Shown in pieces: positions 1 to 39,182 of a DNA stretch of 62,561 bases. The translations under genes were made by a program, and so were the position numbers. A model generated the notes under the pieces. It was given only the letters and a program-made list of their open reading frames with translations. It was not told the DNA's origin and did not search any database. This DNA is from an uncultured Methanosarcinales archaeon (GTDB lineage Archaea > Nanobdellota > Nanobdellia > Woesearchaeales > ARS49): contig CAZCCU010000003.1 in NCBI GenBank assembly GCA_964497645.1, forward strand, positions 1-62,561, written 5' to 3'. Numbering within the stretch: position 1 is the first letter of the stretch; each line of letters starts with the position of its first letter.

Positions 1-112
1 TGTCCACTGGGCCCTTACTGGGCCTGAAAGTACATAAAGCCAGAAAACAATTGTAGTGACAAGCGCGCTACAACGCTTATATCAGCAAAAAAACATCAAA
101 TTGTACGGACAA

Positions 113-343
113 ACGCTGTACAAAGTTGATAAGCGCGAAAAACAATGTATCTTTTTGTTGGACAAAGTCCGACATTTTCGAGTTACACGCTTTTATAGAA
201 GGCGTGTCCGCAAAGTGTCCTGCAAAGTTGATAAGCGCAAAAAGCAATGTATGTTTGGGTTGGACAAAGTCTCATCTAAATGTGCTACCTGCTTTTATAG
301 TCGGGCACAGAATGTCCGCAAAATGCGCTACAAAGTTGATAAG
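113..343. repeat. Tandem repeat, about 2.2 units of 102-108 bp, ending 15 bp before the integrase start
   Basis: CAAAGTTGATAAG occurs at 121, 223 and 331. Units also share GTTGGACAAAGTC, GCTTTTATAG and TGTCCGCAAA. The sub-motif RCAAAGT occurs about 7 times. Confidence 0.8.
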
Positions 344-357
344 GTGATTTTGGCTTT

Positions 358-2560: not shown

Positions 2561-2686
2561 AAAAACCAAGACTTCTTGATGTGCCAAAAACCAAGCTCTA
2601 AAAGACTATTAAAACAACGATTGGAAAGAGCAAGACCAACACCCTCCCAAATGGCGAAGGATTTCACAAGATTTATATACTACTAA

Positions 2687-2947
2687 ATGGTAGTTACTAA
2701 TATGATAAATCATGAAACTTTAGAACAGATAATAACTGTTGCAATTCCAACAGCCTTTGTTGGAGGTTTAGTGGTCGGCAATATAATGGATTATTTGGTT
2801 GCTCGTTATTCTACGCTTCGTTCATTAGGGCGAGAACGCGCTGAAGATTTTGCTTCTGAACAACTTAAAAAATGGGAAAAATCTAATCCATTAATTAAAG
2901 TTGGAACGTATGGTCGCAAAATAGCGTATGAGCAAACATTAAGATAA
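2687..2947 (+). CDS. Hypothetical small membrane protein
   Basis: 86-aa ORF with one hydrophobic helix (IITVAIPTAFVGGLVVGNIM). A TATA-like ATTTATATA lies upstream. Confidence 0.4.
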   Translation: MVVTNMINHETLEQIITVAIPTAFVGGLVVGNIMDYLVARYSTLRSLGRERAEDFASEQLKKWEKSNPLIKVGTYGRKIAYEQTLR

Positions 2948-3008
2948 ACCCTAGATTTTTTAAGGGTGTAAGTGAATTTTTATAAAGTCAACAAGTATAC
3001 AAAGCGTT

Positions 3009-3335
3009 ATGGACGAGAATATTGAGAACATAGCCACGAAAGTACAAACTGTTGCACAAATGCTTGGCAAGCCGTGTGCAGCGCATGGCTGGAACTCATT
3101 TCACGCATATCAGGATGATCGGATAGTTCTTTCATACAAATGTATGACAGGAAAACCAGAAGGAATAGCAGAGGTCCGCGCTGATGACCAAACTGTTTTC
3201 TTCCAATTTTTGACCGCGCAGAAACCTGATGTACTGAAGCCAGGAGAATGGGAGCGGCGGCTGAATGATTTGTACGCGAAAACGAAACAGCAAAAAGATC
3301 CTCCCAAAACTCCGGTTGATTGCGAACATTTCTAA
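3009..3335 (+). CDS. Hypothetical protein
   Basis: 108-aa ORF preceded by TTTTTATAAAG. Followed by the hairpin AAAAGG-TAC-CCTTTT. Confidence 0.4.
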   Translation: MDENIENIATKVQTVAQMLGKPCAAHGWNSFHAYQDDRIVLSYKCMTGKPEGIAEVRADDQTVFFQFLTAQKPDVLKPGEWERRLNDLYAKTKQQKDPPKTPVDCEHF

Positions 3336-3473
3336 CCATCCCAAAAGGTACCCTTTTCGAACTGTGGGGAAAATCAGAGGAATTGCTACTATTTTGTAAC
3401 TACTATTAAGGGGCTAAAATAGATAGCTTTATATAATGGTGTTATTTAATTGAAGCGTAGGGCGAATACTCAT

Positions 3474-4208
3474 ATGAACAAACTCACAATTCCTGCTGGC
3501 GAGAAAGAACAGCTTAAAGGTTACCAACACTTTGGTTCTTTTGACAAGGGCGTTGCAGCCTTGAAGAAAAAGGGTCTTGAACTTATCACTTCTGAGGACC
3601 TTGCCGAGCATCGTATTGCTGCGAAAGGGCACGAAGAGTACCATCAAAGAAATACAGGAACGTGGACTGCTGAGAACTACAATTACGGTCTAAAAGGAGA
3701 GATTTTGATTGCATCAAGAAAATTTAACCCGATTCTCAAAAACCCTACGAAAGCTACGGATGCCCACAGAAGTGGCAATGAATTTTATCTTGATGCGATA
3801 ACTTGGAAGGCGCTTAGAGAACGTGCTGAGACTGATCCCGAAAAGGCGATTAAAAGTGGCGTACTATTGCTTCCAAGAAAGGATTACAGAAGAAACCTTC
3901 CAACAAATGCTTTTGAAGAATACGCCCCAACACGTTTCCACTTCCGCCAACAGGCAACTCCTTATGGCAGATTCCTTAAAGCACGAGGCATCACGAGTAT
4001 TGGACATTACGTTGTTGAGGAATATGATGCTCGAAAACAGCCCAAGCCCTTTGGTCAGGCCTTGTGGGTCGACTACCTGCACTGCGGGTCTAACCTCGAA
4101 GGCCACGACAGATACCGCCTTAGCGACAGCTGCGATGGCTGGCTGGGTGTGCTTGGGGTACGTCGTGCACCCACGGCTGTAAATGAGCCAAAAACGAAGA
4201 CTGGATGA
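3474..4208 (+). CDS. Hypothetical protein
   Basis: Long ORF (track start 3450 is TTG). The first ATG is at 3474, downstream of TATA-like TTTATATA (about 3428). No recognisable motifs. Confidence 0.5.
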   Translation: MNKLTIPAGEKEQLKGYQHFGSFDKGVAALKKKGLELITSEDLAEHRIAAKGHEEYHQRNTGTWTAENYNYGLKGEILIASRKFNPILKNPTKATDAHRSGNEFYLDAITWKALRERAETDPEKAIKSGVLLLPRKDYRRNLPTNAFEEYAPTRFHFRQQATPYGRFLKARGITSIGHYVVEEYDARKQPKPFGQALWVDYLHCGSNLEGHDRYRLSDSCDGWLGVLGVRRAPTAVNEPKTKTG

Positions 4209-4548
4209 CATCAGTGGAAGCGGGAAAGCCCTTTGTTTACAAAGGCATTAAATACGCGCCGCAAAAGAAGTAACTTCTTCTCGATTCTTATTTGCGATTC
4301 CTTCACCTTTTCTGACGGTCTTGACTTCGCTCTTTCCAATAGTTATTTAATGCTTTATTCGTTGCTTGAATTTTATGAACAAAACAAATAAATACAAGCA
4401 GCACTTTATAGCAAGTAGATTCTTGCAACCTCAAGCAAGCAATTGTATGCTTACGAAGAGGGTGCTGCTTCCCGTGTGAGGCTTTAACGGTTAAGTTTGG
4501 AGCACTCGGAAAATAGCGCGTTTTGCGCTACAAAAAATTCAGAGGATT

Positions 4549-5283
4549 TTAAGGTTGTGCTTGTTTCCATAACATTTCGAATAGAACCGTTTGCTGCTTG
4601 GCAAAATCGGCGTGCCTCACGATGATGCCGAGCGGGTTTTGCGGGTCTGTTGACAGAATTGCGACTTTATCTCCATAGATGTATTCTGTTATTTTCGTTC
4701 GTTCTAGCGCGGGCAAGAATCGGGTTTCCCGAAGCTCTTGCTTGTCCTTTTTCTTCCATGTCTCGATTGCGCCAGGTGTTTTTTCAGTGAGTAGCTTCGC
4801 AGGAATTTTCTCTGTTACTCGTTGTTGAATAAATCTGGGCGAGAAATATTTGAGAGTGTTGAACACGGATTCGTAGTTAGAAAATGCAAGGAGCGGTTGT
4901 TTTTCTCCGAGAATATCCTGCCAGATCGTGCGAATGCCCTCTACTCCTTCGTAGAGTTCAAGTGTTGGCCCTTCGGTGACGAATTGTCGTAATTTTCTCA
5001 GTTCCGGAAGTGCTTCCTGGATTTTTTGTTTCTTCGCGTCGAGACTTTCAATGAGCTTTTGCGGGTCTGCAGCTTCGAAATGGAGGATTCGATTTTTCAC
5101 AAGGCTAGCCACAATGCCTTTTTCTCGCAGCGATTTGAGGATGTCGTAGGTTGTTGTTCGAATGAGGTCAGAACGTTCGGCGATCATGTTGACTGTTGAA
5201 GGACCCAAGGAGAGCAAAACCAGGTAGACCTTTGCTTCTTTCTCGCTCAAGCCGACTTCTTGCAATAACGGGCCTAACTCCAT
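4549..5283 (-). CDS. TrmB-family transcriptional regulator
   Basis: N-terminal wHTH LSEKEAKVYLVLLSLGPSTVNMIAERSDLIRTTTYDILKSLREKGIV. Start moved to the ATG at 5283, which lies about 25 nt downstream of ATATTTAAATA (minus strand). The track ORF runs to 5349. Confidence 0.8.
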   Translation of the reverse strand: MELGPLLQEVGLSEKEAKVYLVLLSLGPSTVNMIAERSDLIRTTTYDILKSLREKGIVASLVKNRILHFEAADPQKLIESLDAKKQKIQEALPELRKLRQFVTEGPTLELYEGVEGIRTIWQDILGEKQPLLAFSNYESVFNTLKYFSPRFIQQRVTEKIPAKLLTEKTPGAIETWKKKDKQELRETRFLPALERTKITEYIYGDKVAILSTDPQNPLGIIVRHADFAKQQTVLFEMLWKQAQP

Positions 5284-5362
5284 AGGGTAACGTACTGAAG
5301 GGCTATTTAAATATTTTTTGTTTTGTCGTAGACTTTCGACAGCAAACATTTAATTACTTTTC

Positions 5363-5378
5363 ACTACTATGTAGTAGT
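5363..5378. promoter_or_regulatory. 16-bp perfect palindrome ACTACTA-TG-TAGTAGT in the divergent TrmB/cassette intergenic region
   Basis: Read directly from the sequence. Lies between divergent genes 4549-5283(-) and 5416-6480(+). Confidence 0.5.
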
Positions 5379-5415
5379 TAGAAGTGACTCATCCTCGAAA
5401 ACGGGTGGAGACGCA

Positions 5416-6480
5416 ATGACACAAAAAAAACCCATTAAAATCCGTGAAGACTGCCGGAGAGACGGCATCGCGGCTAATTTCTTGATAGATGCAAGTATGA
5501 TGAAGACGCTTGCAGAAGCGCTTCCCACAGCCATCATCGATGTTGGTTACCCGTCCATTTGTTCTGCGGAGGAAAAGCGTGTTGCACAGATTCTGGAAGC
5601 ACTGAAGGAAACCAACGTAGAGTCCGCAGTTTACAGTCACGCCATGCGCTCGCATCTTGATCAGACGGGACACCTGATTGCGCCTTACCGGAATGCAAGC
5701 GCGTGCTTCTGGATCCCTACAAGTGACCACTTCATTTCGCAGACGCTCGCGGACTGGAAGCCCGAGGATGTGCTCAACAATGCAGTTTCGCTGGTTGAGT
5801 ACTTCACCAAGCAGTACGGCAAGCCGGTCGACGTAGCGTTGACTGACACGACGCGCGCAGAAAGCGGACTTGAGCACAGACTCGCGGAATGGTCTAGTCG
5901 CCTCAGCGACGCTGGCGCGCGCTCTCTGATTGTGTGTGACAGTCTTGGAATCGGCAACCGGGAGATTGCGGAACGGCTCTTTGATGCCATTCGCGCCCGA
6001 TACAGCGGATTGCTTGAATTCCATGGCCACGATGACAACGGTACTGCCCTTGATCAGGTCAAGGTCGCAGTTGAACACGGCTCTCCCATAATCAATACTG
6101 CACTGTTCAATGCTTCTGAGCGGGGGACGCTCGTGTCGCCGCAACGACTATTGCAGGCGGGACTGAACTTCCCGTGTGACCAGGAGCGGCTTGCAACGTT
6201 CGTTACTGAGTTCGAGCACAAGATAGGAAACCCTCAGGAGATTGTCCGTCTGCTCTACGGTCCGTCAACGATCGTGACCGGATCGCAGTACCGGCTCCGG
6301 GACAGATTTGCAGACCCGAAACTGCTCTTTGGAGTGACAAGTGACCGGTTCATCTACCGTAAAATGACGGGCAGCACTGCTCCTGATGACGTTGTGCGCC
6401 AGGAAATGGAGCGCTTGAAGAATTCACTCTACCAGCAGGGGAAAGTGTGCTTTGACGAGCGCGAGATTAACGTAGCGTGA
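5416..6480 (+). CDS. HMGL-like (DRE-TIM metallolyase) family protein, divergent
   Basis: IREDCRRDG (compare TLRDG), VGYPS, CDSLGIG, FHGHDDNGTALDQ (H-x-H metal site) and ASERGTL (compare GERAGN). The segment is visibly GC-richer and carries long shadow ORFs. Confidence 0.5.
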   Translation: MTQKKPIKIREDCRRDGIAANFLIDASMMKTLAEALPTAIIDVGYPSICSAEEKRVAQILEALKETNVESAVYSHAMRSHLDQTGHLIAPYRNASACFWIPTSDHFISQTLADWKPEDVLNNAVSLVEYFTKQYGKPVDVALTDTTRAESGLEHRLAEWSSRLSDAGARSLIVCDSLGIGNREIAERLFDAIRARYSGLLEFHGHDDNGTALDQVKVAVEHGSPIINTALFNASERGTLVSPQRLLQAGLNFPCDQERLATFVTEFEHKIGNPQEIVRLLYGPSTIVTGSQYRLRDRFADPKLLFGVTSDRFIYRKMTGSTAPDDVVRQEMERLKNSLYQQGKVCFDEREINVA

Positions 6481-6487
6481 GGATACT

Positions 6488-7297
6488 GTGTCTTCGCCAC
6501 TCGAGAGCATCTACAGGAACAGGGAATTTAATTGGCGTGAGTACGCAAAGCTCTACGAACGCTACTGTGCGACGTCGGGGAACTACTACCGCTTGACCGC
6601 ACGCGCAATCCTCAATCGCATCGCGATTCAGGACAGCCACAGCATTGTTGATGCGGCATGCGGCACAGGAATTTTTACTGAGGAAGTGTGCCGTTCACAA
6701 TCGCCTCGAATCATTGGCATCGACCTGTCCGAGGAGGCGTTGGCACGCTACGCATCCAAGTTCGCTGCGCATGCACGGATTATGCCTGTTCGCGGAAATC
6801 TTGAAATGATCGATTCCTCGGTAGATTCCCCTATAGACCAGATTATCGCTGCCTCAGCGCTTTGGAACTTCAAATGGAAGGAGTTTTTCCCCAAGGCAGG
6901 CAAGATTCTCAAGCAGCACGGAGTGCTGTCGTTCAACGTTCCCGCGGCCTACCTAGGAGAAAAAAGCGGATTTTTGTACGAAGTCGCGCAGACGTTCGAG
7001 AAAGAGTGCAATACGAGCGGCAAGATGTTCTCTATCGAAGACCGCACGCTGCAGGACGTCCTTGCGGCCTCCGGTTTCAAGCACGTCGAGAAGCATGCAT
7101 ACCAATTTGCGATGTCTCCGGAAGCGCTGAAAGGCATGTTTGCACTGTTCAGGTTACGCGCACCGTTCATCTTCTTTCAGGACGACCTTCCGCTTGCCGA
7201 ACGGCAAGCGGTAACGGACAGGACACTCGACCGGATACTCAAACAATGGCAAAAGGGTCACGTCGAAACAGGGCATGTCTACGTTTGCAAGAAATAG
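6488..7297 (+). CDS. Class I SAM-dependent methyltransferase
   Basis: Motif I VDAACGTGIFT. GTG start 8 nt after the upstream stop. Same GC-rich segment. Confidence 0.7.
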   Translation: MSSPLESIYRNREFNWREYAKLYERYCATSGNYYRLTARAILNRIAIQDSHSIVDAACGTGIFTEEVCRSQSPRIIGIDLSEEALARYASKFAAHARIMPVRGNLEMIDSSVDSPIDQIIAASALWNFKWKEFFPKAGKILKQHGVLSFNVPAAYLGEKSGFLYEVAQTFEKECNTSGKMFSIEDRTLQDVLAASGFKHVEKHAYQFAMSPEALKGMFALFRLRAPFIFFQDDLPLAERQAVTDRTLDRILKQWQKGHVETGHVYVCKK

Positions 7298-7496
7298 CAG
7301 AACATTTTTCGAGGACATCAAACTAATTGGTACACCATCGAAACAATAATAAACTTCAACCACGTTAGTTATTTCATTCAGGAGCCCGCAGAAATTCCTT
7401 AAAGGGCTCCAAACTTAATCTACGGAGCACATCGGAGGCTCTAGTAGTTTAGTATGGATCCCTCGATGTTGAGACTGCAGTGTGCTTGAAGTCGAT

Positions 7497-7916
7497 CTAG
7501 TGCTTAATCTCCAGATATTTGATCAGGTCTTTTGTTTTCCAGATTTTGATGCGGTTCTGTTTTTCGAAGTGTTTGTCTTCGCTCCAGATTCCATCATTTC
7601 TGACCGATAGAGCAAGTGCGATAAAAATTGCGTCTTTTGGGTCGATAGAATCCATAACGCGTGCTGCTTCTTCCCTGTGCTTGATATCAGTTTCAGGTAC
7701 AATAAGTAGGTTGCTTTTGAGGCTCTCTATCAGAAGTTGAAATTTTTCGTCTGATAGCTTAGACTTGTGCAAAATTTCAGTAGTAATCTTTTCGATTTCT
7801 TGAAAAGCGAACTCAGGAACAAAATATTCCATTTCTGGATGCAAAAGAATCTCTCGTGTTACAGAATCCTTGATTAATGCTGCCACAAGAATATTTGTAT
7901 CGAGTACTAACTTCAT
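7497..7916 (-). CDS. vapC: PIN-domain ribonuclease toxin (VapC-like)
   Basis: N-terminal MKLVLDTNILVAAL, with later acidic residues (EF..QEIE, D..DA). 4-bp overlap with the upstream antitoxin gene. Confidence 0.8.
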   Translation of the reverse strand: MKLVLDTNILVAALIKDSVTREILLHPEMEYFVPEFAFQEIEKITTEILHKSKLSDEKFQLLIESLKSNLLIVPETDIKHREEAARVMDSIDPKDAIFIALALSVRNDGIWSEDKHFEKQNRIKIWKTKDLIKYLEIKH

Positions 7917-8134
7917 CCGTAGTATCTCTTGTGTAATCCTGCTTTGATTTTTTCACCAATCTCTTCTGCGTCTTTTTCTGTTAGTTTGCTTCCGGCAACA
8001 AGCTTTTCCATTAATTCAAGTTTTTTTGCGTGCGCCCACATTGCTTTTCTGGCTATCTCACTCCATTTTATTTCACTATGTTGTTTCATAACCTTGTTCA
8101 ATTCTTCCGGAACCGCTAATGTCATGTTTACCAT
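7913..8134 (-). CDS. vapB: Antitoxin partner of VapC (small DNA-binding protein)
   Basis: 73-aa ORF with an ATGA overlap to the PIN gene. GGAGG lies upstream. Confidence 0.65.
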   Translation of the reverse strand: MVNMTLAVPEELNKVMKQHSEIKWSEIARKAMWAHAKKLELMEKLVAGSKLTEKDAEEIGEKIKAGLHKRYYG

Positions 8135-8146
8135 TTTTCTGCCTCC

Positions 8147-8171
8147 TAAGTATTTTAAGTATGATAAGTAT
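8147..8171. promoter_or_regulatory. Three TAAGTAT direct repeats at 9-bp spacing upstream of vapBC (candidate operator)
   Basis: TAAGTAT occurs at 8147, 8156 and 8165, directly upstream of the SD of the antitoxin gene. Confidence 0.45.
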
Positions 8172-8261
8172 AACTACTTAATAAAGCTTACGGTCATAGA
8201 ACGCAGAAAAGAATATCTCGATTTTGGGCCAAGATTGAAGGCAGCAAATTTGTACTGATTT

Positions 8262-8741
8262 CTACAGTTCGCTTAGTAGACGTCGAAACCTTTTCAGATT
8301 CATTTTGATAAGTATGGAATCTCGACCAACTGGGGATGAAGTGAGTTCAGTTCCAAACCAGGAAGGTGGAACAAAAGACCGCGCTTCTTTTTCACTTTGA
8401 AAATTTACCTCTATACGTATTAATCCTGCATGATTTCCGTCATATACTTTTAATGATGTCTTCGGTGAATCGGATAATCGGTAGACTTTTCCGGTTATCT
8501 TTTTTCGCAAGGTTTTTTTAAGTTCATCAAATTCTTGAACGCTAATGGCCAGAGGGTATTTGTGTGCTGTGAGATCAGAGTTGATTTCTTTTCGTTCAAT
8601 TTCGCACTCATTTCCTTTTCTTTGCAGACGTATTTCTGTTTTTTTACCAATAAATAAGTAGTATCGCTCAAAAGATTTGCCCAGCTTCAATCCACTTGGA
8701 ATCTTTTTCAGGAAGAATTTTCGTTCGATTTCAATACTCAT
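8262..8741 (-). CDS. CYTH-domain protein (triphosphate tunnel metalloenzyme / CyaB-like)
   Basis: N-terminal signature MSIEIERKFFL (the EXEXK motif). Length about 160 aa. Start set at the ATG at 8741. Confidence 0.7.
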   Translation of the reverse strand: MSIEIERKFFLKKIPSGLKLGKSFERYYLFIGKKTEIRLQRKGNECEIERKEINSDLTAHKYPLAISVQEFDELKKTLRKKITGKVYRLSDSPKTSLKVYDGNHAGLIRIEVNFQSEKEARSFVPPSWFGTELTSSPVGRDSILIKMNLKRFRRLLSEL

Positions 8742-8974
8742 AATTCTCAAAAGAGAACACACGTATAAAAATCTAGTCGGTATATCGGTTGCCGACCAGC
8801 CGTACGAAAATTATAAATAAACCAGCATTATGAGGAATGTAAGGTTCAGGAGTCTGTTGAGGGATCCCACTTCTGCTTCTGTAGCCCACCGTAGGCTTTC
8901 AACTTTCTCTTTGTTGCACGGCGAAGATTTAAATATGTCGTCTTCTCATCATCGCGTATCAACGAGGTGATTTT

Positions 8975-9313
8975 ATGGCAGATTACATACGTGCATTGAA
9001 GTGGCCTGTCCTTACTTGGATAGTGCTCGATGTGTTATATTATGTTGTGGGCAAAGTATATGCCCCTGCAGGGCAACTGTTTACGCCGGACATTGCTGCA
9101 ATAACAGCAATCGTATTCGGTATTTGGGGCGGCAGCAAGATTGTCGAGTTCAAAGGCAAATACTTGGATGCTTTTGGCGCAGGTGTTGTTTTGGGCGTTC
9201 TATGCTTCGTCCTATGCCTGCTTGGAGGATTCGGAGCCCCGCTTGGAGTGTACATGGGTATCATGAACCTCTCAGGTGCATTGATTGGCGGCGGATACGC
9301 GCTAACGCGATAA
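8975..9313 (+). CDS. Hypothetical membrane protein (3-4 TM)
   Basis: 112 aa, Gly-rich and hydrophobic throughout. Confidence 0.5.
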   Translation: MADYIRALKWPVLTWIVLDVLYYVVGKVYAPAGQLFTPDIAAITAIVFGIWGGSKIVEFKGKYLDAFGAGVVLGVLCFVLCLLGGFGAPLGVYMGIMNLSGALIGGGYALTR

Positions 9314-9333
9314 TTTTTATTCTTTTATTTTTG
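9314..9333 (+). terminator. Oligo-T tract (archaeal-type terminator candidate)
   Basis: TTTTTATTCTTTTATTTTT immediately follows the stop codon. Confidence 0.35.
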
Positions 9334-9421
9334 ATTTCTCTATTGCTTTCCGCAGAAGGCTTCCATCCCGTCTTCTCACAAATCGTAATCTTTATAATGT
9401 TGCGAGCGCGTCTGTGTATTC

Positions 9422-9895
9422 ATGCAAAAGAAGTTCGGATTGCTAATCGTATTCGCGTTATTGGTTGCGTGCGCTCCGCAGCAACCTGCGCCGGTCCCGA
9501 TGAGTCCTGTTCTTGTTTCTGTGGATGAACTCGTGTGGGCAGACGCTCCGCCTTCTTTGCCTCCAGGTGCGAAAATCGCGGTCATTGAGGCGGGTGGTTT
9601 GAAGAATCCTGAACCGTTCACATTTAGGTTGAAGCTTCCTCCTAATTATGAGATAGCACCGCACACTCATCCTGCGATTGAGCACGTGACGGTCCTCTCA
9701 GGAACTTTCTATTTCGCGGAAGGAAGTGATCCAGAAAAAGCCAGGGAATACACAGCTGGAAGCGTTATAATCATGCCAATCGGTCATTCTATGGTGGCTT
9801 TCACGAAGGATGAAGAGGCAGTCATCCAGGTGCACGGCACCGGCCCGTGGGGAATCACCTACCTAGATTCTGCTGACGATCCGAGAAACAAGTAA
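9422..9895 (+). CDS. Secreted cupin-domain (lipo)protein
   Basis: Signal peptide with lipobox-like LLVACAP. Cupin motif HTHPAIEHVTVLSGTFYF. Confidence 0.65.
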   Translation: MQKKFGLLIVFALLVACAPQQPAPVPMSPVLVSVDELVWADAPPSLPPGAKIAVIEAGGLKNPEPFTFRLKLPPNYEIAPHTHPAIEHVTVLSGTFYFAEGSDPEKAREYTAGSVIIMPIGHSMVAFTKDEEAVIQVHGTGPWGITYLDSADDPRNK

Positions 9896-9898
9896 AAA

Positions 9899-10438
9899 TT
9901 ATCCCAATTCTCTTTTCAATATTTTGTGCGCGCGGTTGATTGCTTTGAATTTGGTCAGATTGCCTGTAGAAACATCAGGGTGGTGTTCTTTTGCTAATGC
10001 CTTGTATCTCTTATTAATAGCGTCTAAATCTTTGGTATCGTGGCTTACTCCCAATGTCTCTCGTGCTTCTTTGCGTTGTTCCTCAACATCTTCTTCCTCT
10101 TTGAATTCGCTGATGAAGTCTTGTATTGTTTTCCGTTTATGGATCACGGCGTCGACTTCAAGCGCGATTACTTTTGAGACGACGTACAAGTTTTCAACAA
10201 ACTTCGAAGCTGCTTCATAGCTGTAGTACATGCGGTGTCCATCCATGAACCACAATACTGATGCGGGAGCGTTTTTCAAGGCGAATTTTTCCATTTGGAC
10301 GTCAATCTGGCTTTCTGGAACTCCTAGTGCGTTCAGCGCTTCGATGATGTGATTCATGAATTGTATGGCTCGCCTGCTGAACGAGTCTTTTACTATGAAC
10401 ATCTCGAATTCATATCCTTTAACTTTTGTTATCGTCAT
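9899..10438 (-). CDS. J-domain protein (C-terminal DnaJ domain)
   Basis: C-terminus reads RYKALAKEHHPDVSTGNLTKFKAINRAHKIL, with an HPD tripeptide. Confidence 0.7.
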   Translation of the reverse strand: MTITKVKGYEFEMFIVKDSFSRRAIQFMNHIIEALNALGVPESQIDVQMEKFALKNAPASVLWFMDGHRMYYSYEAASKFVENLYVVSKVIALEVDAVIHKRKTIQDFISEFKEEEDVEEQRKEARETLGVSHDTKDLDAINKRYKALAKEHHPDVSTGNLTKFKAINRAHKILKRELG

Positions 10439-10481
10439 TATTCATTACCACTCAGTGGTTATATACAAAAAACGCGCGTCC

Positions 10482-10489
10482 TTTATAAA
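10482..10489. promoter_or_regulatory. TATA box TTTATAAA
   Basis: Palindromic TATA between the J-domain gene start (10438, minus) and a structured region on the plus strand. Confidence 0.4.
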
Positions 10490-10548
10490 CTTGGCTATGC
10501 GTATATAACCGAAACATTAAAATGCTCTTATCTTAACTTCTAGCGTGT

Positions 10549-32087: not shown

Positions 32088-32795
32088 CTACTTGCCAAAC
32101 CTTCTTCCTCTGCTGTTGTACTCTTCTATGCACGCTATTAAGTCTTCTTTTTCTATTTCTGGCCAGAGTTTTTCAATGAATATTAACTCGCTGTAGGTGC
32201 TTTGCCAGGTTAGGAAGTTGCTTGATCTTTGTTCTCCGCCTGTTCTTAATACTAGGTCTGGTGCTGAGTCAAGCCATAAGTGCTTTCCAATCTCTTTTTC
32301 ATCAATTTTAGCCGGATCTATTGTGCCCTCTTTGGCTTCGGCAGCTATTTTTTGCACAGCGTCTATGATTTCTTCTCTTCCGCCGTATGCCATTGCGAAG
32401 TTGATTCTTCGAGGACTGTTATTTTTGGTTGCTTCCATGACTTTGTTCTGTAATTCTTGCACGTCTTTTGGCAGCATCCATTGTCTGCCGATGAAATTTA
32501 CCCTTACTCCGTTTTTCCTCATTTTTTCTAATTCCTCTGGTTGAAGGAGGTGTTCGAATTCTGCTCGGAATACTTTCATTATGTACTCGAATTCTTCTTT
32601 TGGCCTGTCGAAGTTTTGTACTGAGAACACGTAAGCAGTTATCTCCTCAATTCCAAGTTCGTGGCACCAGTCTGTGAATTTTCTGAACTTCTCAGCGCCC
32701 CATTCATGTCCTTTCCAGGGCTTGAGCATCAATCTTTTGGCAAATCGTCTGTTTCCGTCTAAAATAACGCCTATGTGTTTTGGCACTTCACTCAT
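32088..32795 (-). CDS. uppS: cis-prenyltransferase (undecaprenyl diphosphate synthase family)
   Basis: HIGVILDGNRRFAKR and RTGGEQRSSNFLTWQSTYSELIF. Confidence 0.92.
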   Translation of the reverse strand: MSEVPKHIGVILDGNRRFAKRLMLKPWKGHEWGAEKFRKFTDWCHELGIEEITAYVFSVQNFDRPKEEFEYIMKVFRAEFEHLLQPEELEKMRKNGVRVNFIGRQWMLPKDVQELQNKVMEATKNNSPRRINFAMAYGGREEIIDAVQKIAAEAKEGTIDPAKIDEKEIGKHLWLDSAPDLVLRTGGEQRSSNFLTWQSTYSELIFIEKLWPEIEKEDLIACIEEYNSRGRRFGK

Positions 32796-33280
32796 TGTGT
32801 CTTCACCTGCTCGAATAAATGTACGAATTGTTCGTTGCTCAGCTTCAATCCCGCCTCAAGTACTAGATTCGCCAGTTTTTTGGCGCTTTCGTCTGGTTTT
32901 TCGTCAGGGACAAAAGCAAGAAGTTGTTGCCAAGTGTGGTCGCATAAAAATCCTTCGTTCATGCCGAGTACGACTTTCTTGTTCTTTTCCCGTACTGTCT
33001 TTTCATTCAAATCAACGACAATACTTTCTTGCCTGAGTACGTTTCCTTCTCGTATGAATCCGTGGTTTGATAGTTCTTGTGCTGCTGCTTCCAGTATTGC
33101 TTGCTGTATTCCGATAGGCAGTTCTGCCATTCCTTCAGAATATCTGGTGAGTGTGTGCGTTTTGCCTAAATACTTAGAAACTCTTTGTCTGCTTCCCCAA
33201 GGTGTCCATTCATTCTCTACTAGGTAAGCGTATGGTCTTCCGCTGATTTTTTTGACGCGTACAAACATAGCACTAGGCAC
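32792..33280 (-). CDS. Hypothetical protein
   Basis: 162 aa, with an ATGA overlap to uppS. Confidence 0.5.
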   Translation of the reverse strand: MPSAMFVRVKKISGRPYAYLVENEWTPWGSRQRVSKYLGKTHTLTRYSEGMAELPIGIQQAILEAAAQELSNHGFIREGNVLRQESIVVDLNEKTVREKNKKVVLGMNEGFLCDHTWQQLLAFVPDEKPDESAKKLANLVLEAGLKLSNEQFVHLFEQVKTQ

Positions 33281-33615: not shown

Positions 33616-34326
33616 TTACTTATAAACTTTTTGGCTTAATGCAACAATCTGCGCGACTGCTGTTATGCCTGCAGTCTCAGTGCGTAATATCGTCGGCCCA
33701 AGCGAGACGAATGTGCATCCTGCTTCTTTTGCTGCCGCAAGCTCTGCTTCGGTGAAGTCTCCTTCTGGTCCAACTATTGCAAGCACGGTTGCGCATTCAC
33801 AATACGCCTTGACAAGTGGTTGTCCTGTTTTGTGGCATAAAAACGCGTGATTGTAATTTTTTATCGTCGATAAAACCTCGGCAAACGGTATAGGAACAGA
33901 TATCGTAGGCACTATGCTTCTCTCACTTTGCGCACATGCTTCTAGTGCGATCCTTCGCAGTCTTTCTATTTTTGCCTCTCTTGGCTGTACAACGCTCCTG
34001 CTGCAAATGATAGGCACTATGCTACTAGCTCCTATTTCACTCACTTTTTCTACGAGAACATCCATTCTATCCCCTTTAGGCACCGCGATTGCGAGTGTTA
34101 TATTGACTTTGGGCTCTTCCCTAGGCTTTATTGCCTTCTCTGGGAGCATTCTGCCTTTACTCACTTTTTCAGAATAAACAGCTTCAAATTCGTGTCCTTT
34201 GCCATCAAATACTCCTATTTTCTCTCCTTCTTTCAATCTGAGAACCTTCAGGTGCCTAATTTGGTCTCTTGTAAGGGCTATTTCCTTGTCAAGTTCAGCT
34301 CCTGGAACGTATAATCGAACTCTCAC
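33616..34326 (-). CDS. rsmE: 16S rRNA (uracil-N3)-methyltransferase RsmE family
   Basis: PKGDRMDVLVEKVSEIGASSIVPI and IVGPEGDFTEAE...LGPTILRTETA. Confidence 0.7.
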   Translation of the reverse strand: MRVRLYVPGAELDKEIALTRDQIRHLKVLRLKEGEKIGVFDGKGHEFEAVYSEKVSKGRMLPEKAIKPREEPKVNITLAIAVPKGDRMDVLVEKVSEIGASSIVPIICSRSVVQPREAKIERLRRIALEACAQSERSIVPTISVPIPFAEVLSTIKNYNHAFLCHKTGQPLVKAYCECATVLAIVGPEGDFTEAELAAAKEAGCTFVSLGPTILRTETAGITAVAQIVALSQKVYK

Positions 34327-34622
34327 TTTTTGCTCACAAATTCATAGTTTTTAATAATCTTCTGGTGCCCAACTAACATTGAGGTTCTTAACCCTTGAAC
34401 TTTTAGGCACTACGTCAACAACCAAAACGTGATGTTGTCAAAATGACTCTGATGTCGCCAATCTGACTTATTTCTGTCAGTTTGACAAATTTTTTCCCGC
34501 ACCCTGTTTCCAGCCAAAAACCCGGTCACGGTCAAGGCTTATTTCGCTACGATCAATCGCAACTCAGTTTGGACTGTCTGGTTGTTAACCCAGGTAAGGA
34601 ATACCTCCTATTTTAATGTTTC

Positions 34623-34881
34623 TGTCCTGTCCCAGACCTGTCCCAGTCCTGAGACGGTCCTGAGACCGTCCCAGTTGCACATATAATATAGTCGAATAAT
34701 CAGTCCTAAGATAGTCCCAAATTAGTCCCAATCAAATCCTGAGACTGTCCTGGGACGGTCCTGAGACTATCTTGAGACGTTCCCAGGACTGTCCCAGTCC
34801 CAGCATTTTATCGTCGATAAATTAGTCCTGGGACGGTCCGAAATAGTCCCAGTCCCAAACACACATATGGGACCGTCCCAT
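34623..34881. repeat. Dense iteron array built on GTCC(C/T)(A/G)R
   Basis: I count 18 top-strand GTCC tetramers in about 260 bp. The longer unit GTCCTGRGAC occurs about 6 times and GTCCCAG about 6 times. Hairpin GACGGTC-CTGA-GACCGTC at 34653-34670. Palindrome ATGGGACCGTCCCAT at 34867-34881. Confidence 0.85.
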
Positions 34882-34899
34882 GACTGCACAACAATAAAC

Positions 34900-34907
34900 T
34901 TTTTAAA
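34900..34907 (+). promoter_or_regulatory. TATA-like TTTTTAAA
   Basis: Lies 23 nt upstream of the ATG at 34930 and immediately after the last iteron. Confidence 0.45.
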
Positions 34908-34929
34908 TGAAGTTCCATTAGCACCTTTC

Positions 34930-35610
34930 ATGTTTGATTTTTTTGGAACAACAAAAAAGATGGCTGAGATGGACAGGTCTGTCTCGCAGTCGTTCGCGAA
35001 GGTGAAGCAGGATACAGAGTCTCTTTACCAGTGGGTGAGCTACTTGTACCAGCAAAACCAGCAGCTCGTCGAGCAGAACGCTGCCTTGAAGCGTCTTACG
35101 GAAGAGCAAAAATTTGCTCTGAACGAAGTGAAAGTTACAGTTCAGCACTTGCCGAAGACGCCGCATGAGATCAAAACAATCGTCGAGCAGTACTACAACT
35201 TCGAGCCGATTCTTCAAAGAATCAAGCACATCGAATCAAAGATTGAACTGCTCGAGATTCGTCGTCAAGAGAGGCCTGTTTTCCGCCCTTTGGATCACCA
35301 ATCTCCTAGCGTGAGCGCTCCTGTTGCCGTCGAAAGGACGTCAAGCACCGCTTTGAAGGAAAAGCTTATGCGCAAGCTTGCCCGCAATAGCAAGGACTAC
35401 ATCAAGAATCTCGTCCTGGGCCTTGTGCACAAGTACGGGAAGATGGGCGCTCTCCAGCTCAGAGAGATTGTAGTGGAAGAACAAGGCCTGTGCTCAAAAT
35501 CAAGCTTTTACCGCGTTCTGGAAGAGATGGAAAAAGAGAGCTCATTGCAGATTATCAGCGACGGAAAACACACTGTTTACGTGGCTGCTGCTCAGCACGC
35601 AGCGCAATAA
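34930..35610 (+). CDS. Coiled-coil protein with C-terminal winged-helix domain
   Basis: N-terminal heptads. C-terminal LVHKYGKMGALQLREIVVEEQGLCSKSSFYRVLEEMEKE...DGKHTVYV. The track start 34867 lies inside the iteron palindrome, so the ATG at 34930 is preferred. Confidence 0.55.
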   Translation: MFDFFGTTKKMAEMDRSVSQSFAKVKQDTESLYQWVSYLYQQNQQLVEQNAALKRLTEEQKFALNEVKVTVQHLPKTPHEIKTIVEQYYNFEPILQRIKHIESKIELLEIRRQERPVFRPLDHQSPSVSAPVAVERTSSTALKEKLMRKLARNSKDYIKNLVLGLVHKYGKMGALQLREIVVEEQGLCSKSSFYRVLEEMEKESSLQIISDGKHTVYVAAAQHAAQ

Positions 35611-35683
35611 GAAACCTATTTTTTTCCCTACCGCAAATCTTTTAAACAACTCTCCTTTCCAAAAAACCATTCGACTAAATGGG

Positions 35684-36220
35684 GTGGTTGAAATTCGTGA
35701 CAAGCAAGAGTTATTGCTGTCGAGTGATGCAGATGTGTTCCGCCAGGAACTCTCCGTAGTGCTGTCGTGCATGAGGGAGGAGTTGGACGACCACAGATTG
35801 GCCGTTAATGAGAACACTGATGAGCTTGCAGCGACGAACGAGTTCTTGAATGAACTCTCAAAAAAGCTGGACAAGCTGACAGAGCGTGTTGACGAGCTTA
35901 CCTTGCACGTCAAGGGCCGGAAAGAGGAGAAGAAATTCCAGATTGAGCCATTGACGAACAAGGAGAAGGAAGTCTTCCAGGCGCTTTATTTGCTCACCGA
36001 GAGTCAGCCTTATGCCTCTTACGAGCATATTGCGAGAAAGACCATGCTGGCAAAGGGTGTCGTGATGGACCTCGCTACCTGCATGATTCAGAAGGGTGTG
36101 CCGATTGTGAAGAAGCTTGACGGCACAACTGTTTTCTTGAAGCTTGATGCAGAATTCCGTCAATTGCAGGCCAAGCAGAACATTATTGGCTTGAATTCTC
36201 TTCTGTCGGCGTGGGGTTAG
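35684..36220 (+). CDS. Coiled-coil protein with C-terminal winged-helix domain (same architecture as the upstream gene)
   Basis: LTNKEKEVFQALYLLTESQPYASYEHIARKTMLAKGVVMDLATCMIQKGVPIVKKLDGTTVFLKL. Confidence 0.55.
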   Translation: MVEIRDKQELLLSSDADVFRQELSVVLSCMREELDDHRLAVNENTDELAATNEFLNELSKKLDKLTERVDELTLHVKGRKEEKKFQIEPLTNKEKEVFQALYLLTESQPYASYEHIARKTMLAKGVVMDLATCMIQKGVPIVKKLDGTTVFLKLDAEFRQLQAKQNIIGLNSLLSAWG

Positions 36221-36674
36221 ACCTTAATTTTTCTTTTTTTATCTCGTTCTGAAGGTGTTCGATCATTCTGAAGCTGGAGTCCATGTGTGCTTTCAGCGTC
36301 GCTTCTGCTTTCCTGAATGCTCCTTCGAGATTCGTGCCATTCAGCTCGTAGCCGATGACGACTTTTCCGCTTGAGACAAAGCTTGTTTTTTTCAAAATCT
36401 GCAGGTCCAGCCATCGTCGTAGGTAATCGTACATCGTCTGGCGTTTGATTCCAGCATGCAATGCCATTTCTTCGACTGGCATGACTGCCGCTTCTGGCCT
36501 TTTCTCACGGTTAGCCTCTTTCTTGCGCTCGTACAGTTGTAGCAGTAGTTTGTGGAGTTGTGCGCTGCCGTCTTTTTTTCTCGGCAGGAGTCCAAAGCGT
36601 GCAAGAAGTACCTTCGAGAGTTCTTCAACTTCGTGGTTTACCGGTTCCGCGTTGCCAAGCAAAAATTCCATCAT
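36183..36674 (-). CDS. HTH DNA-binding protein
   Basis: EEMALHAGIKRQTMYDYLRRWLDLQIL. Convergent with the 35684 gene, with a 38-bp overlap. Confidence 0.5.
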   Translation of the reverse strand: MMEFLLGNAEPVNHEVEELSKVLLARFGLLPRKKDGSAQLHKLLLQLYERKKEANREKRPEAAVMPVEEMALHAGIKRQTMYDYLRRWLDLQILKKTSFVSSGKVVIGYELNGTNLEGAFRKAEATLKAHMDSSFRMIEHLQNEIKKEKLRSNPTPTEENSSQ

Positions 36675-36920
36675 GCACCTTTTTTCAAGTGTTGAAAATT
36701 TGTCTGCTTAAAAATTTTCCGATGATGCCTGTCCAGTGTCCACTGAAATCCCGACATCAATAACTTCTACTCTTTGCTTAAAACTTTTAATCAAATATTT
36801 TCTAAAGCATAAAAGTTTTCGCAAAAAACACCGATTTCCGCATTAGAAGTCTGTGGCGCTGTTTTTTCTAAAAAGATGAGTTATGACCTTTCCAAAGGCT
36901 TAAAATTTGACCTTGCTGGA

Positions 36921-37150
36921 TAGAATTCGCGAAAAATCCCGACACTTTCAGCCAACCCATTCCGAAACAGGCATCCACCCAACCGCCACTTTCTCCGATT
37001 TTCCCGTCAGCGCCGGCATTTTTCCTGTCTTTCTCTGATTTATCCGACAAACAAGGTCAAGGGGCTCCTGGCTTGTACCCTTGGTTCCGTGCCAAAAGTC
37101 GCTAAAAGATGCACGAATTCAAGAATTCTGGCAAAATCCCTTACACTTTT
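36921..37150. repeat. Imperfect ~28-bp direct repeat pair about 200 bp apart (AGAATTC-N-AAAATCCC-NN-ACACTTT), with a third partial copy at 36745-36756
   Basis: AGAATTCGCGAAAAATCCCGACACTTT (about 36922-36948) compared with AGAATTCTGGCAAAATCCCTTACACTTT (about 37121-37148). GAAATCCCGACA at 36745. Confidence 0.6.
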
Positions 37151-37662
37151 GGTGACGTTCTTTTTCGTGCGTTTTCGAGGATGGTTCTTGCTTGGTCAAC
37201 TACTGTTTTTTCGAGCGTTCCAAAGCCTTCTATTTCGACGGAAAATTGGTTGCCGGTGTTCGTGTTTTCGTGATAAAACGTTTTGAAATAGTCCATGTCT
37301 ACGGGATTAAACCCTCTTACGTCTGTACTGTTCGGATTTTTTGTTGGCGTGTAGAAAACAGTGATCATTGCAGGATGAACTCTCGATGCTGCAGCCAATT
37401 GTGAAGCTGTTTCTTCGTCTAATCGGCCATCGTACACTAATGCGACTGATTCTGTGTGTCCTGACTTTCGCTCGTACATTCTGATGCCATCAAAGGTGTA
37501 TGTGTCGACGGGTTTTGCCTTATTCGTGCAGAGATTTCGTTCGATTGGCGGCAGTGCAGCAATTCTTTCCTTTTCTTTTCTGTCGAGCGCTATGCGTTCT
37601 AAGTTTTCTTTCTTCCGAAGATCATATCTCGCAGTATCCGTAGTCATTTTATCTCCACCCAT
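37141..37662 (-). CDS. Hypothetical protein
   Basis: 173-aa ORF, no motifs. Confidence 0.45.
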   Translation of the reverse strand: MGGDKMTTDTARYDLRKKENLERIALDRKEKERIAALPPIERNLCTNKAKPVDTYTFDGIRMYERKSGHTESVALVYDGRLDEETASQLAAASRVHPAMITVFYTPTKNPNSTDVRGFNPVDMDYFKTFYHENTNTGNQFSVEIEGFGTLEKTVVDQARTILENARKRTSPKV

Positions 37663-38360
37663 TGCAATTTTTCAGGTGCTGGTATTTAAAGCTTTTGGCT
37701 ACTCTTTATTTTTTTTTAAATATAGAAAATTATTAATTTAACTTCTGAAAAGTGATAATAAAAGTTTAAATAAAATACACCTTACAAAATATATAATGGC
37801 AACTACTGCTGATAAAACATAAATAAGAAAGAATATGATATAAACTAAAAGTCTGAAAGAAAATATCACAAACTGTATTTTCAAAAATATCTATTGTAAA
37901 ATTACCAAAACCCTCACTTTTTATCAATTTCTGTGAGTGAAAAGTGAGCTTTCGTTGTTAGTTGGCTGTTTAGGCGCTTAAACAGGCAGGTCCAATAGTG
38001 CAAAACAGCAAATTTGAAATTCTCGTGCCTAATTATAATAGATTTTATGATGCCTAAAGAACTAAGAGTTTTTAGTTATTTTTTTACAAGTGCAAGCTGC
38101 AAGAAGGCACTCAGCTGTGTGTAGTTGAGCCTGTAAAGTGAGAGTTAGGTGAGTCAGGAGCAGAAAGAAACAAAACAAAAGATAGGCACTATTCAGAAGT
38201 CTTGTTTTTCTGTACCGTGTAGGCTTGTAGAAAGAACTGTAAAGGATAAAAAAAGTGAGTGTTGCTAGTGAAATTAGGTTAAAATCCCTGAAATCATTGT
38301 TTCTTCTTATCTGACTAGTGGTGATAAGTTCTTTTATATAGGGGAGTTCATGAAAAATGA
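37663..38360. other. About 0.7-kb AT-rich non-coding region with AAAGTGAG repeats
   Basis: No ORF of 60 aa or more. AAAGTGAG at 37941, 38135 and 38252, plus an inverted copy at 37913-37921 forming a 9-bp stem with 37940-37948. Confidence 0.7.
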
Positions 38361-39182
38361 ATGGAAGAAACAGTGGAGCCCGAGCATGGTGTATCGCCGG
38401 GTGTTTTAGGTCTTATTGCAGTTCTATCTATCGGTGGCTTGTTGTTCGTTGGCTGGCAGGCAAGCATTGCTGGCCAGTATGCTTCTGGCCCTTACTCGAC
38501 AGCTGGTCCATATGCGAGCTGTTGCACCGTTGAGCCGTGGAGTTCTTCGATCGCTGGATACAGTCCTGGGACTGGTTTGACGACGACAGAAATTTGCAAG
38601 CCGACTGAGCTGCCTCAGCGTTGTTGTGTTCGCGCGACGAGCGAGCGTTATCATTCTCCTGTCAGATTGTTGGACTCGAGCCAGGGCACGTGTCCTGGTC
38701 CTGAGGTGAGTTATCCGTTTGGCGGTGATTATTCTTCGTGTTGTACTGTTCAGTCTTGGAGGAGCGCTCCTACTGGCTTCATTCAGAGCACTGCTGAAAC
38801 GACAACAGAGCGTTGCACTGGTGCCGAAACTCCGACTGAGTGTTGTGCGAGAAATGCTGCGAGCAGGACTGAGTATAGTATTCGCGTTTTAGGCTCGAGA
38901 TTTGGCGACTGTAATCCTCCTGAAATTAATTATCCTGCATCGATCCCTGGCGGTTATACTGCTTGTTGCAGTGGAGAGATGTGGCAGCATGCTCCTACTG
39001 GTTATGCTCAGGGAACCCAGACAAGAACCACTGCATCTTGCGATCCTTTGGAGACTTTGAGCCAGTGTTGTGCGCGTTCTATTACTCAGAATTCTCAGTA
39101 TCCTGTGAAGTTGCAGGGCTTTAGGCTTGGTTCGTGTTTGTCAAGCGGTCCAGAGAAGAGTTATCCTGTTTGGATTAGATAA
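38361..39182 (+). CDS. Membrane-anchored secreted protein with three ~75-aa Cys-rich repeats
   Basis: N-terminal TM LGLIAVLSIGGLLFVGW. Three repeats follow the pattern Y-x-x-CC...W...P-T-G...T-T...C...E-x-x-x-x-CC-x-R...C...YP. Confidence 0.65.
   Translation: MEETVEPEHGVSPGVLGLIAVLSIGGLLFVGWQASIAGQYASGPYSTAGPYASCCTVEPWSSSIAGYSPGTGLTTTEICKPTELPQRCCVRATSERYHSPVRLLDSSQGTCPGPEVSYPFGGDYSSCCTVQSWRSAPTGFIQSTAETTTERCTGAETPTECCARNAASRTEYSIRVLGSRFGDCNPPEINYPASIPGGYTACCSGEMWQHAPTGYAQGTQTRTTASCDPLETLSQCCARSITQNSQYPVKLQGFRLGSCLSSGPEKSYPVWIR

Follow-up and report, generated by a model that had tools for sequence, protein, structure and literature searches.

What is the role of a locus at which ~1.77 of 4.03 kb are non-coding and the few genes between the repeat-filled gaps are mostly small and predicted to encode DNA-binding proteins? 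This question is raised by positions 34327-38360 of contig CAZCCU010000003.1 (assembly GCA_964497645.1), a stretch of 62,561 nucleotides from an uncultured archaeon of the Woesearchaeales which was analysed over its whole length and is called the window here. A reading made without database searches (the sequence-only reading) had pointed to iterons, dedicated DNA binders and an AT-rich stretch as the layout of an origin, a partition site or an integrated plasmid or virus remnant, and had proposed an undescribed origin, segregation or regulatory system. The layout proved to be genuine and conserved across a whole archaeal order, and the label was a fair one, as the system fits no described family. 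The locus represents, in the window, a module which occurs once on the chromosome of Woesearchaeota/Nanoarchaeia and has a fixed architecture, consisting of C boxes pointing rightward, a T array, a promoter, ORF1, ORF2, the convergent ORF3 with its own promoter, a P block, an AT-rich stretch and C boxes pointing leftward. As to its function, we lean, with a confidence somewhat below even, towards a self-contained nucleoprotein complex, acting in cis and either centromere-like or organising the chromosome, rather than towards the hub of a regulon.

Four open reading frames (ORF1 to ORF4) and three gaps (34327-34929, 36675-37140 and 37663-38360) lie between rsmE (33616-34326, minus strand; Pfam Methyltrans_RNA, E 8e-49) and the Cys-rich ORF5 (38361-39182). 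The gaps are where the sequence-only reading had placed them and each of them does carry repeats, namely an 11-bp array in the first, AAATCCCGACA and 20-bp units in the second and C boxes in the third. Altogether five short DNA-box families (T, P, C, G and X) are confined essentially to this locus. The left border, on the other hand, had been set too far to the right, since four C boxes inside or at the start of rsmE (33922-34329) extend the feature to the left. The repeats also go beyond what had been described, in that the clusters reach into coding sequence and are strictly polar, the second gap is a position-conserved block and ORF4 is an accessory gene.

For the comparison, relatives of ORF1 were sought in one genome per species; 158 genomes gave a match and 80 loci were fetched, with ~7 kb of flank covered per genome. 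Gene order is the same in essentially all 80 loci: UPP synthase (UPPS), o162, rpo11, rsmE or another methyltransferase gene, a gap, ORF1, ORF2, the convergent ORF3, a second gap and PAC2. Identity to the window's proteins is 59–95% for ORF3, 41–93% for Rpo11, 30–97% for ORF1 and 31–94% for ORF2. No other gene of the module is as well conserved as ORF3, which equals or exceeds the RNA polymerase subunit Rpo11 in this respect; as far as sequence conservation can tell, this points to a core function. No viral relatives of ORF1 or ORF3 were found in the IMG/VR contigs, no plasmid relatives of ORF3 in PLSDB and no integrase, att site or tRNA at the locus; a tRNA scan of the whole window was likewise negative. 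The fixed synteny together with the lack of viral and plasmid relatives marks the locus as an old, fixed chromosomal feature and not an integrated element, and an integrated plasmid or virus remnant, one of the options that had been considered, was rejected because the same position is occupied in 80 species-level genomes. A transposon end was rejected as well, as the inverted repeat formed by 34316-34338 and 37932-37954 consists of two C boxes, which all genomes have at this fixed position.

The T array (34606-34885, plus strand) fills much of the first gap and is composed of ~20 units nGTCC(C/T)(A/G)nnnn with a period of 11 bp and the core TCCCA. TCC[CT] cores follow at 11-bp steps from 34625 to 34876, Tandem Repeats Finder reports a period of 11/22 at 34626-34794, a repeat family designated D1 comprises 8 copies 11 bp apart, and the array ends in the inverted pair ATGGGAC-C-GTCCCAT at 34867-34881. 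The palindromic form GTCCYRRGAC, with at most one mismatch, matches 35 times in the window against 11.1 ± 3.7 times in shuffled sequence, and 17 of the 35 listed matches lie inside 34646-34884 (both strands of palindromic units counted). Among the loci with enough upstream sequence the array is present in 78/78, so that relatives which keep the ORFs without the repeats, although looked for, were not encountered. In these loci it has 6-27 units (A/T)(G/T)TCCCA with the consensus A(T/C)A(G/T)TCCCA(R), extends from about -264 to -67 relative to the start of ORF1 and ends just ahead of a TATA-like element. Spacings between TCCC cores peak at 11, 22, 33, 44 and 55 bp (305, 175, 126, 96 and 108 cases), with a background of up to 77 in the columns beside the peaks and at most 55 at every other spacing. 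When the variants GTCCCA and TTCCCA of the unit were compared with residues of ORF1-3, the covariation was dominated by phylogeny.

Inside the array lies the X palindrome TTTATCGTCGATAAA (34807-34821), whose 8-mer TCGTCGAT occurs in 38/74 upstream regions; X is 15-fold enriched inside versus outside the locus. A second copy of TTTATCGTCGATAAA is found at 33860-33874 in the rsmE coding sequence, 950 bp to the left of the copy in the array, and also in the loci L005 and L030. Behind the array follows the TATA-like box TTTTTAAA (34900-34907, plus strand), 22 nt before the ATG of ORF1, from which a leaderless or near-leaderless transcript would be expected. Such elements lie at a median of 34.5 nt before ORF1 in 64 loci.

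On the other side of the genes, ORF3 is preceded by its own promoter region (36675-36800, minus strand) with a conserved TTAAAAATTTT, a palindromic TTAAAACTTTTAA and the first P box at 36746-36756, and further upstream by the P block (36934-37146, plus strand). The P-box family AATCCCGAC forms here a position-conserved block of ~250 bp. In the window it begins with P1, AAATCCCGACA, at 36934 (there are two exact copies of AAATCCCGACA in the window, both in the second gap), followed by three tandem 20-bp units starting at 36998, 37018 and 37038, then GGTCAAGGGG, CCTTGGTTC and finally P6, AAAATCCCTTACA, at 37133. The first of the 20-bp units belongs to an inverted pair ATCCCGnC-n3-5-GnCGGnAT. In 30 genomes (alignment A3) the block aligns base for base over ~250 bp, in the order AAAAATCCCGACA, the inverted pair, CCnGACTTTCTC, GATTTTCCCGACAAATGAGGTCAAGGGG, CCnTGGTTC and ATTCTGGGATTATCCCTTACAA. 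RNAalifold predicts zero base pairs on this alignment. Small coding ORFs in the second gap were considered and rejected, because relatives "match" equally on both strands, which places the conservation at the level of the DNA and not of an encoded peptide.

The C boxes form two clusters which point inward. In the window the core AAAGTGAG/CTCACTTT has nine copies, of which 8/9 fall in 33922-38259, while 3.9 are expected for the whole window; the extended form is AACnCTCACTTTT. The left cluster (33918-34334, plus strand) has AACnCTCACTTTT at 33922, 34040, 34160 and 34322, each of them in the orientation CTCACTTT on the plus strand. These boxes are embedded in the coding sequence of rsmE, the last one covering its GTG start, and G boxes TTAGGCAC/GTGCCTAA flank the innermost of them (34252 in reverse and 34403 in forward orientation; 34252-34410). 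The right cluster (37913-38259, minus strand) comprises a convergent pair (37913, >; 37941, <) followed by two leftward boxes (38135 and 38252, both <); interspersed are GTGCCTAA (38025) and a TAGGCACTA box (~38184), and this order C-(G)-C-G-C is conserved. Across the loci the right side reads AAAATATATTTTG - C - (G) - C - TTAGGCACTAT - C with spacers of variable length, and in the corresponding alignment (A5), for which RNAalifold again predicts zero pairs, the boxes alone are conserved. Between the P block and this cluster lies the AT-rich stretch (37674-37910; GC at most 20% over 37674-37852), which contains the conserved element AAAATAT(A/C)T(A)TTG at 37882-37896.

The C boxes are strictly polar. 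To the left of ORF1, 292 CTCACTT (>) stand against 8 complements (<) in 65 loci, and to the right of ORF2, 116 complements (<) against 30 forward copies (>). Some of these forward copies belong to a convergent pair (spacing 29 bp, 10 loci) which edges the AT-rich stretch; a pattern C> - AT - C< recurs in related loci, the window's pair 37913/37941 being located at the right-hand AT edge. Neighbouring boxes of the same orientation are 40-260 bp apart, giving two opposed clusters of 3-7 sites. Where rsmE is the left neighbour (27 loci), its C boxes number 2.2 on average and occupy two different frames; in the window they encode K-V-S-E (AAA GTG AGT GAA) and Q-S-E (CAA AGT GAG). Where rsmE is missing, its place is taken by an unrelated class-I methyltransferase gene (Pfam MTS/Cons_hypoth95/PrmA) with 4-5 C boxes in the same orientation, for example at 5562-6197 in L061 and 5907-6578 in L038. 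Whichever methyltransferase gene is the neighbour, 2-5 C boxes lie within its frame, invariably in one orientation. Coding controls are almost devoid of C boxes. That the boxes are kept inside two unrelated genes and in different frames shows selection at the DNA level, and the C boxes are accordingly selected as DNA elements over a zone of ~500-700 bp, whatever that zone encodes. Polar sites embedded in two unrelated methyltransferase genes also illustrate clearly how, in nature, constraints from protein coding and from DNA-binding sites can overlap.

To what extent are these boxes specific to the locus? 8-mers were counted in 74 intergenic regions upstream and 48 downstream, with coding sequences as controls. 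CTCACTTT is present in 63/74 upstream and 47/48 downstream regions (1 in the controls) and TTAGGCAC in 42/74 and 43/48 (1 in the controls). TAGTCCCA is typical of the upstream side (59/74, with ATTCCCAA in 56; downstream 2/48; controls 0) and AATCCCGA of the downstream side (31/48; upstream 5/74; controls 2). TCGTCGAT was counted in 9/48 downstream regions, in addition to the upstream ones given above, and 5 times in the controls. Summed over all loci, that is 238 kb inside the module and 375 kb of flanks, the C box has 296 copies inside and 11 in the flanks, the P box ATCCCGAC 40 and 0, AGTCCCA 179 and 13, and the X box 29 and 3. Confinement of the boxes to one locus speaks for dedicated sites acting in cis and against a regulon.

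The proteins that might read these boxes belong to no named family. ORF1 (34930-35610, plus strand, 226 amino acids) was studied by homologue search and by an AlphaFold2 model based on a 24-sequence alignment, with a mean predicted local distance difference test score (pLDDT) of 81. In the model, residues 4-114 form a helical hairpin or coiled coil, 118-138 a disordered linker and 141-224 a C-terminal winged helix with SKSSFYR as its invariant recognition helix; Foldseek retrieved generic winged helices only (Hop2, ArsR/SmtB, MarR and TubR, with E of at least 2.5e-3). In ORF2 (35684-36220, plus strand, 178 amino acids) an N-terminal coiled coil, with REELDDHRxAINENT as invariant motif, is combined with a C-terminal helix-turn-helix (HTH), which matches HTH_24 in 8/25 family members and a GerE profile with E 7e-4. 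Paralogy between ORF1 and ORF2 was not detectable with hhalign (probability 4.7%). ORF3 (36183-36674, minus strand, 163 amino acids) is modelled with a pLDDT of 84 and a predicted template-modelling score (pTM) of 0.72 as one winged helix followed by a C-terminal helix of 35 residues. Its best Foldseek matches are the TrmB-like 1sfx, the winged helix of TFE-alpha, AbfR2/Lrs14 and MarR, with weak matches to DnaD-N and to RTP (ranks 21 and 50, TM 0.22-0.31). Searches with the models of ORF1 and ORF3 against PDB and BFVD gave generic winged-helix matches only (E at least 4e-4), and TubR chains are present among the fold matches of the locus winged helices. By fold and profile, then, ORF1, ORF2 and ORF3 are predicted to be lineage-specific DNA-binding proteins of the winged-helix/HTH type, in agreement with the DNA-binding assignments that the sequence-only reading had given to three ORFs.

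The 3' ends of ORF2 and ORF3 overlap convergently by 38 nt (36183-36220), which could couple the two units through transcriptional interference. A convergent overlap of ~30-40 nt is seen in many genomes (e.g. 9224-9255 in L003 and 9513-9541 in L001). ORF4 (37141-37662, minus strand, 173 amino acids), between the P block and the AT-rich stretch, has homologues only in the two closest relatives, L005 (67%) and L006 (40%), suggesting an accessory insertion into the module; it had been called an orphan, which holds for its lack of a family match but overlooks that it is an insertion confined to these few genomes.

ORF1-4 reached no family in Pfam, NCBIfam, PHROGs or PADLOC; for ORF1-5 these searches returned coiled-coil or HTH noise only, and sequence searches of PDB with single sequences and profiles nothing meaningful. 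The earlier statement that the locus ORFs carry no Orc1/Cdc6, Rep, ParA or integrase motifs is upheld by these family searches, and profile matches to metabolic regulators were looked for without any being found. Homologues number 368 for ORF1, 119 for ORF2 and 409 for ORF3, and all three families, whose database names are "hypothetical" or generic, are confined to the Woesearchaeota/Nanoarchaeia. An exhaustive profile search with ORF3 among 1.84 billion representatives gave 56 clusters only, indicating a narrow family; its distant members have generic HTH domains only.

Is the locus an origin of replication? Archaeal origins typically comprise an AT-rich region flanked by conserved repeats together with an adjacent initiator gene (PMC4010727). 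An AT-rich element flanked by inverted repeats, one hallmark of an origin, is present at the locus; two others, an adjacent Orc1/Cdc6 gene and a switch of strand skew, are both absent. In detail, no Walker-A ORF of the Orc1 type was found in the window and no Orc1-like gene within ~7 kb in any of 84 loci. The two strands of the window differ strongly in composition whatever the orientation of the genes, and the sign of this asymmetry is the same on both sides of the locus: the plus-strand GC skew at third codon positions (GC3 skew), averaged over plus and minus genes, is +0.22 (12-24 kb), +0.12 (24-34 kb), +0.26 (38-50 kb) and +0.24 (50-62 kb). The dip is local, because the far-left value (0.22) matches the values on the right (0.24-0.26). 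In 21 loci with adequate flanks, left and right skew are correlated with r = 0.87 and have the same sign in 17/21. The sign of the orthologous left flank varies among genomes (13 positive, 8 negative), which is not expected from forks that constitutively diverge at the locus. A principal origin or terminus was therefore rejected, and the origin option of the sequence-only reading runs into flat skew, which that reading had itself named as counting against it. The excess of right over left skew among the loci we attribute, the dip in the window being local, to the conserved left-flank genes, weak use as an origin being possible. The boxes of the locus may share an AGTG core with the origin recognition box (ORB) and mini-ORB.

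One part of the window departs from this skew. At positions 1-10500, where GC3 skew is near zero or negative versus ~+0.2 for 11-62 kb, an integrase of the tyrosine type (358-1638, matching Pfam Phage_integrase with E 4e-16) is encoded together with a regulator of the TrmB family (4549-5349) and with a PIN toxin (7497-7916). This part is probably an integrated element or genomic island; alternatively, the change in skew at ~10-11 kb could be a replication landmark.

How might a centromere-like or organising complex be built from these parts? ORF1, probably together with ORF2, would read the TCCCA units through its C-terminal winged helix, the 11-bp spacing aligning consecutive proteins along approximately the same side of the DNA helix, and the N-terminal coiled coils would oligomerise, resulting in a filament or solenoid over ~200 bp. 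As this filament would stop 20-40 bp ahead of the TATA box, it might also set the expression of ORF1 and ORF2 by autoregulation, as in ParR-parC and TubR-tubC on plasmids. Dimers of ORF3 would bind the phased P boxes before their own gene, that is the 20-bp tandem units and the inverted pair, and the inward-pointing C boxes with the G boxes would delimit the domain as polar sites for a protein of the module or a factor encoded elsewhere. That all boxes lie at one locus, and that ORF3 is conserved at least as well as Rpo11, argues against a regulon.

Several points weigh against this reading. The pairings of proteins with boxes are inferred only from adjacency and from the matched invariance of helix and box. 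No gene for a ParA, ParM or TubZ motor was found among ORF1-5 (Pfam, NCBIfam) or the conserved neighbours, and hence the locus is not a canonical partition locus. A purely autoregulatory circuit would also explain that arrays lie upstream of, and co-oriented with, each transcription unit, and an iteron-like P block, an AT-rich stretch and, at some loci, a convergent C pair make up a classic origin layout. Moreover, the right GC3 skew exceeds the left one in 19/21 loci (mean +0.14), which a weak origin could give, and further box sites may exist beyond the ~7 kb of flank that were covered in each genome.

The alternatives differ mainly in what they make of the arrays. In a purely transcriptional circuit, which we hold to be rather unlikely but the most serious of the rivals, ORF1/ORF2 and ORF3 would be convergent, mutually interfering autoregulated units, for example of a cell-cycle or state switch; the T and P arrays would be operators, the C boxes far-upstream co-oriented sites, and the output would go through protein contacts or a few distant sites. 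Each array does lie directly upstream of a promoter, the polarity of the C boxes is the direction of the downstream unit, the 3' overlap of ORF2 and ORF3 is conserved and the folds resemble ordinary archaeal regulators (TrmB-like, MarR, Lrs14/AbfR2). However, 375 kb of flanks are without further sites of note and a conservation like that of ORF3 is unusual for a self-regulator; to our knowledge, 10-27 phased sites, a conserved block of 250 bp and boxes in coding sequence up to ~1 kb away also far exceed known archaeal operators. It is unlikely, too, that the locus is a secondary, conditional or dormant iteron-type origin from a captured extrachromosomal replicon, with ORF3 as initiator on P-box iterons beside an AT-rich unwinding element, bracketed by inverted C boxes, and with ORF1/ORF2 and the T array as partition or control module. 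Such capture has been proposed for extra archaeal origins (PMC4010727), and the order of an initiator-like gene, inverted pair, 20-bp tandem boxes, AT-rich stretch and convergent C boxes would fit, as would the positive right-minus-left skew in 19/21 loci, the four loci of mixed sign, which are all of origin-type polarity, and weak DnaD_N or replisome-organiser-like matches of ORF3 relatives. The lack of a sign switch and of Orc1/Cdc6, the variable sign on the left flank, the single winged helix of ORF3 without a Rep match and the lack of plasmid or viral relatives speak against it.

A polar barrier or insulator is improbable. Here the C boxes, bound by a winged-helix protein of the locus, would be orientation-dependent roadblocks to replication forks, RNA polymerase or translocases of the SMC (structural maintenance of chromosomes) type and would isolate the central segment, resembling Tus-Ter and RTP-Ter. 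Opposed clusters of strictly polar sites enclosing a winged-helix gene whose product has a long dimerising helix, and RTP among the Foldseek matches of ORF3, are in line with this; yet these RTP matches are weak, the missing skew switch argues against a terminus, and the T array and P block would be left unexplained. Most improbable of all is an integrated plasmid or virus remnant, or a set of non-coding RNA genes in the gaps. The low coding density, the repeats, the small DNA-binding genes and the accessory ORF4 might suggest either, but the identical position in 80 genomes and the lack of integrase, tRNA, att site and viral or plasmid relatives contradict a remnant. RNA genes are contradicted by Rfam, which gave no family in the window at the gathering score and only microRNA or long non-coding RNA noise in the locus even at E up to 5, by the zero pairs on A3 and A5 and by the variable spacers of the right side.

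Taken further, the favoured reading of a cis-acting complex would mean that the Woesearchaeales, and perhaps the Nanoarchaeia more widely, carry a dedicated "point centromere" or organising centre without a motor gene, which we consider possible but doubtful. Its parts would be, with the same reserve, the set of three winged-helix proteins, the phased 11-bp array, the P boxes as a rigid platform and polar boundary sites in neighbouring coding sequence; that it is a categorically new element of archaeal chromosomes is an equally doubtful proposition. The components are of known kinds (iterons, winged helices, AT-rich spacer), and it is their combination that is undescribed, including order-wide fixation in the chromosome, polar boxes in coding DNA and the absence of a motor or initiator gene. 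Full-text searches of the literature on origins, ORBs or such proteins in Woesearchaeota/DPANN found no description. We know of no experimental work on the replication, organisation or segregation of DPANN chromosomes, and a point centromere, if real, would have no described counterpart and would give a first handle on the segregation and organisation of these genomes. The module is universal in one large DPANN order, its proteins are without family assignment and its DNA follows a precise grammar of unit sequences, 11- and 20-bp phasing and polarity. Three small proteins and five box consensus sequences are concrete reagents, and the locus can serve as a marker for uncultured Woesearchaeota.

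Some observations concern the neighbourhood and unrelated sequences. ORF5 is probably membrane-anchored, has internal repeats CCTV..W...T.E.C...E.P..CC.R and is encoded between PAC2 and the right cluster of C boxes; in relatives it is present, absent or variable in length. The 162-aa ORF at 32792-33280, without a Pfam match, keeps its place beside rpo11 and the gene for UPP synthase in almost every related locus. A scan of metagenomes for the convergent C-box pair yielded 120 unrelated contigs. An unrelated, highly conserved hairpin family of 39 nt, TTCTCACTTTTAACCAAAGTACAGTCTCAATTAAAAGTGAGAAC, was seen on contigs of ~35% GC (L086, L090, L110, L132, L172 and ~50 other metagenome loci), none of which encodes homologues of the window's proteins.

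With which known systems can the module be compared? The closest likeness is to the plasmid partition loci parC/ParR (type II) and tubC/TubR (type III), in which short direct repeats also lie immediately upstream of the operon of the binder and regulate it, and in which TubR is a winged-helix protein. Repeats are spaced by about one helical turn in these systems, with 11 bp in parC of R1 and 12 bp in tubC of pBtoxis. Phased direct repeats beside the operon, by which such partition loci are recognised, are found here with an 11-bp period in every locus with enough upstream sequence. Unlike those loci, the module lacks an actin-like, tubulin-like or ParA motor and is chromosomal, single-copy and order-wide; its putative binders have long N-terminal coiled coils, its array is longer (6-27 units) and at least three further box families are present. 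With iteron plasmid replicons (RepA/pi/TrfA, iterons of 19-22 bp) it has in common the tandem 20-bp units, an inverted pair towards a divergent winged-helix gene and an AT-rich stretch beyond. In contrast to Rep_3/RepA with two winged helices, ORF3 has a single one and no match to a Rep family or to a PDB sequence, and the locus is not extrachromosomal, has no plasmid relatives and shows no skew switch.

Archaeal oriC regions (ORB/mini-ORB with Orc1/Cdc6, or WhiP at oriC3 of Sulfolobus) resemble it in their multiple short boxes and adjacent dedicated winged-helix genes, and likewise, in a subset of loci, in inverted boxes about an AT-rich stretch at the right cluster (the convergent pair 29 bp apart in 10 loci). 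They differ in that here no orc1/cdc6 is nearby, the skew runs through, and the box clusters, separated by 3-4 kb of gene-containing sequence, reach into coding DNA. Two opposed groups of polar sites, finally, are shared with RTP-Ter of B. subtilis and Tus-Ter of E. coli, and in B. subtilis the gene of the winged-helix terminator protein, rtp, adjoins its innermost Ter sites. The locus described here differs from them in not lying at a compositional terminus, in the weakness of the RTP fold match and in having a phased array and a P block for which those systems have no counterpart.

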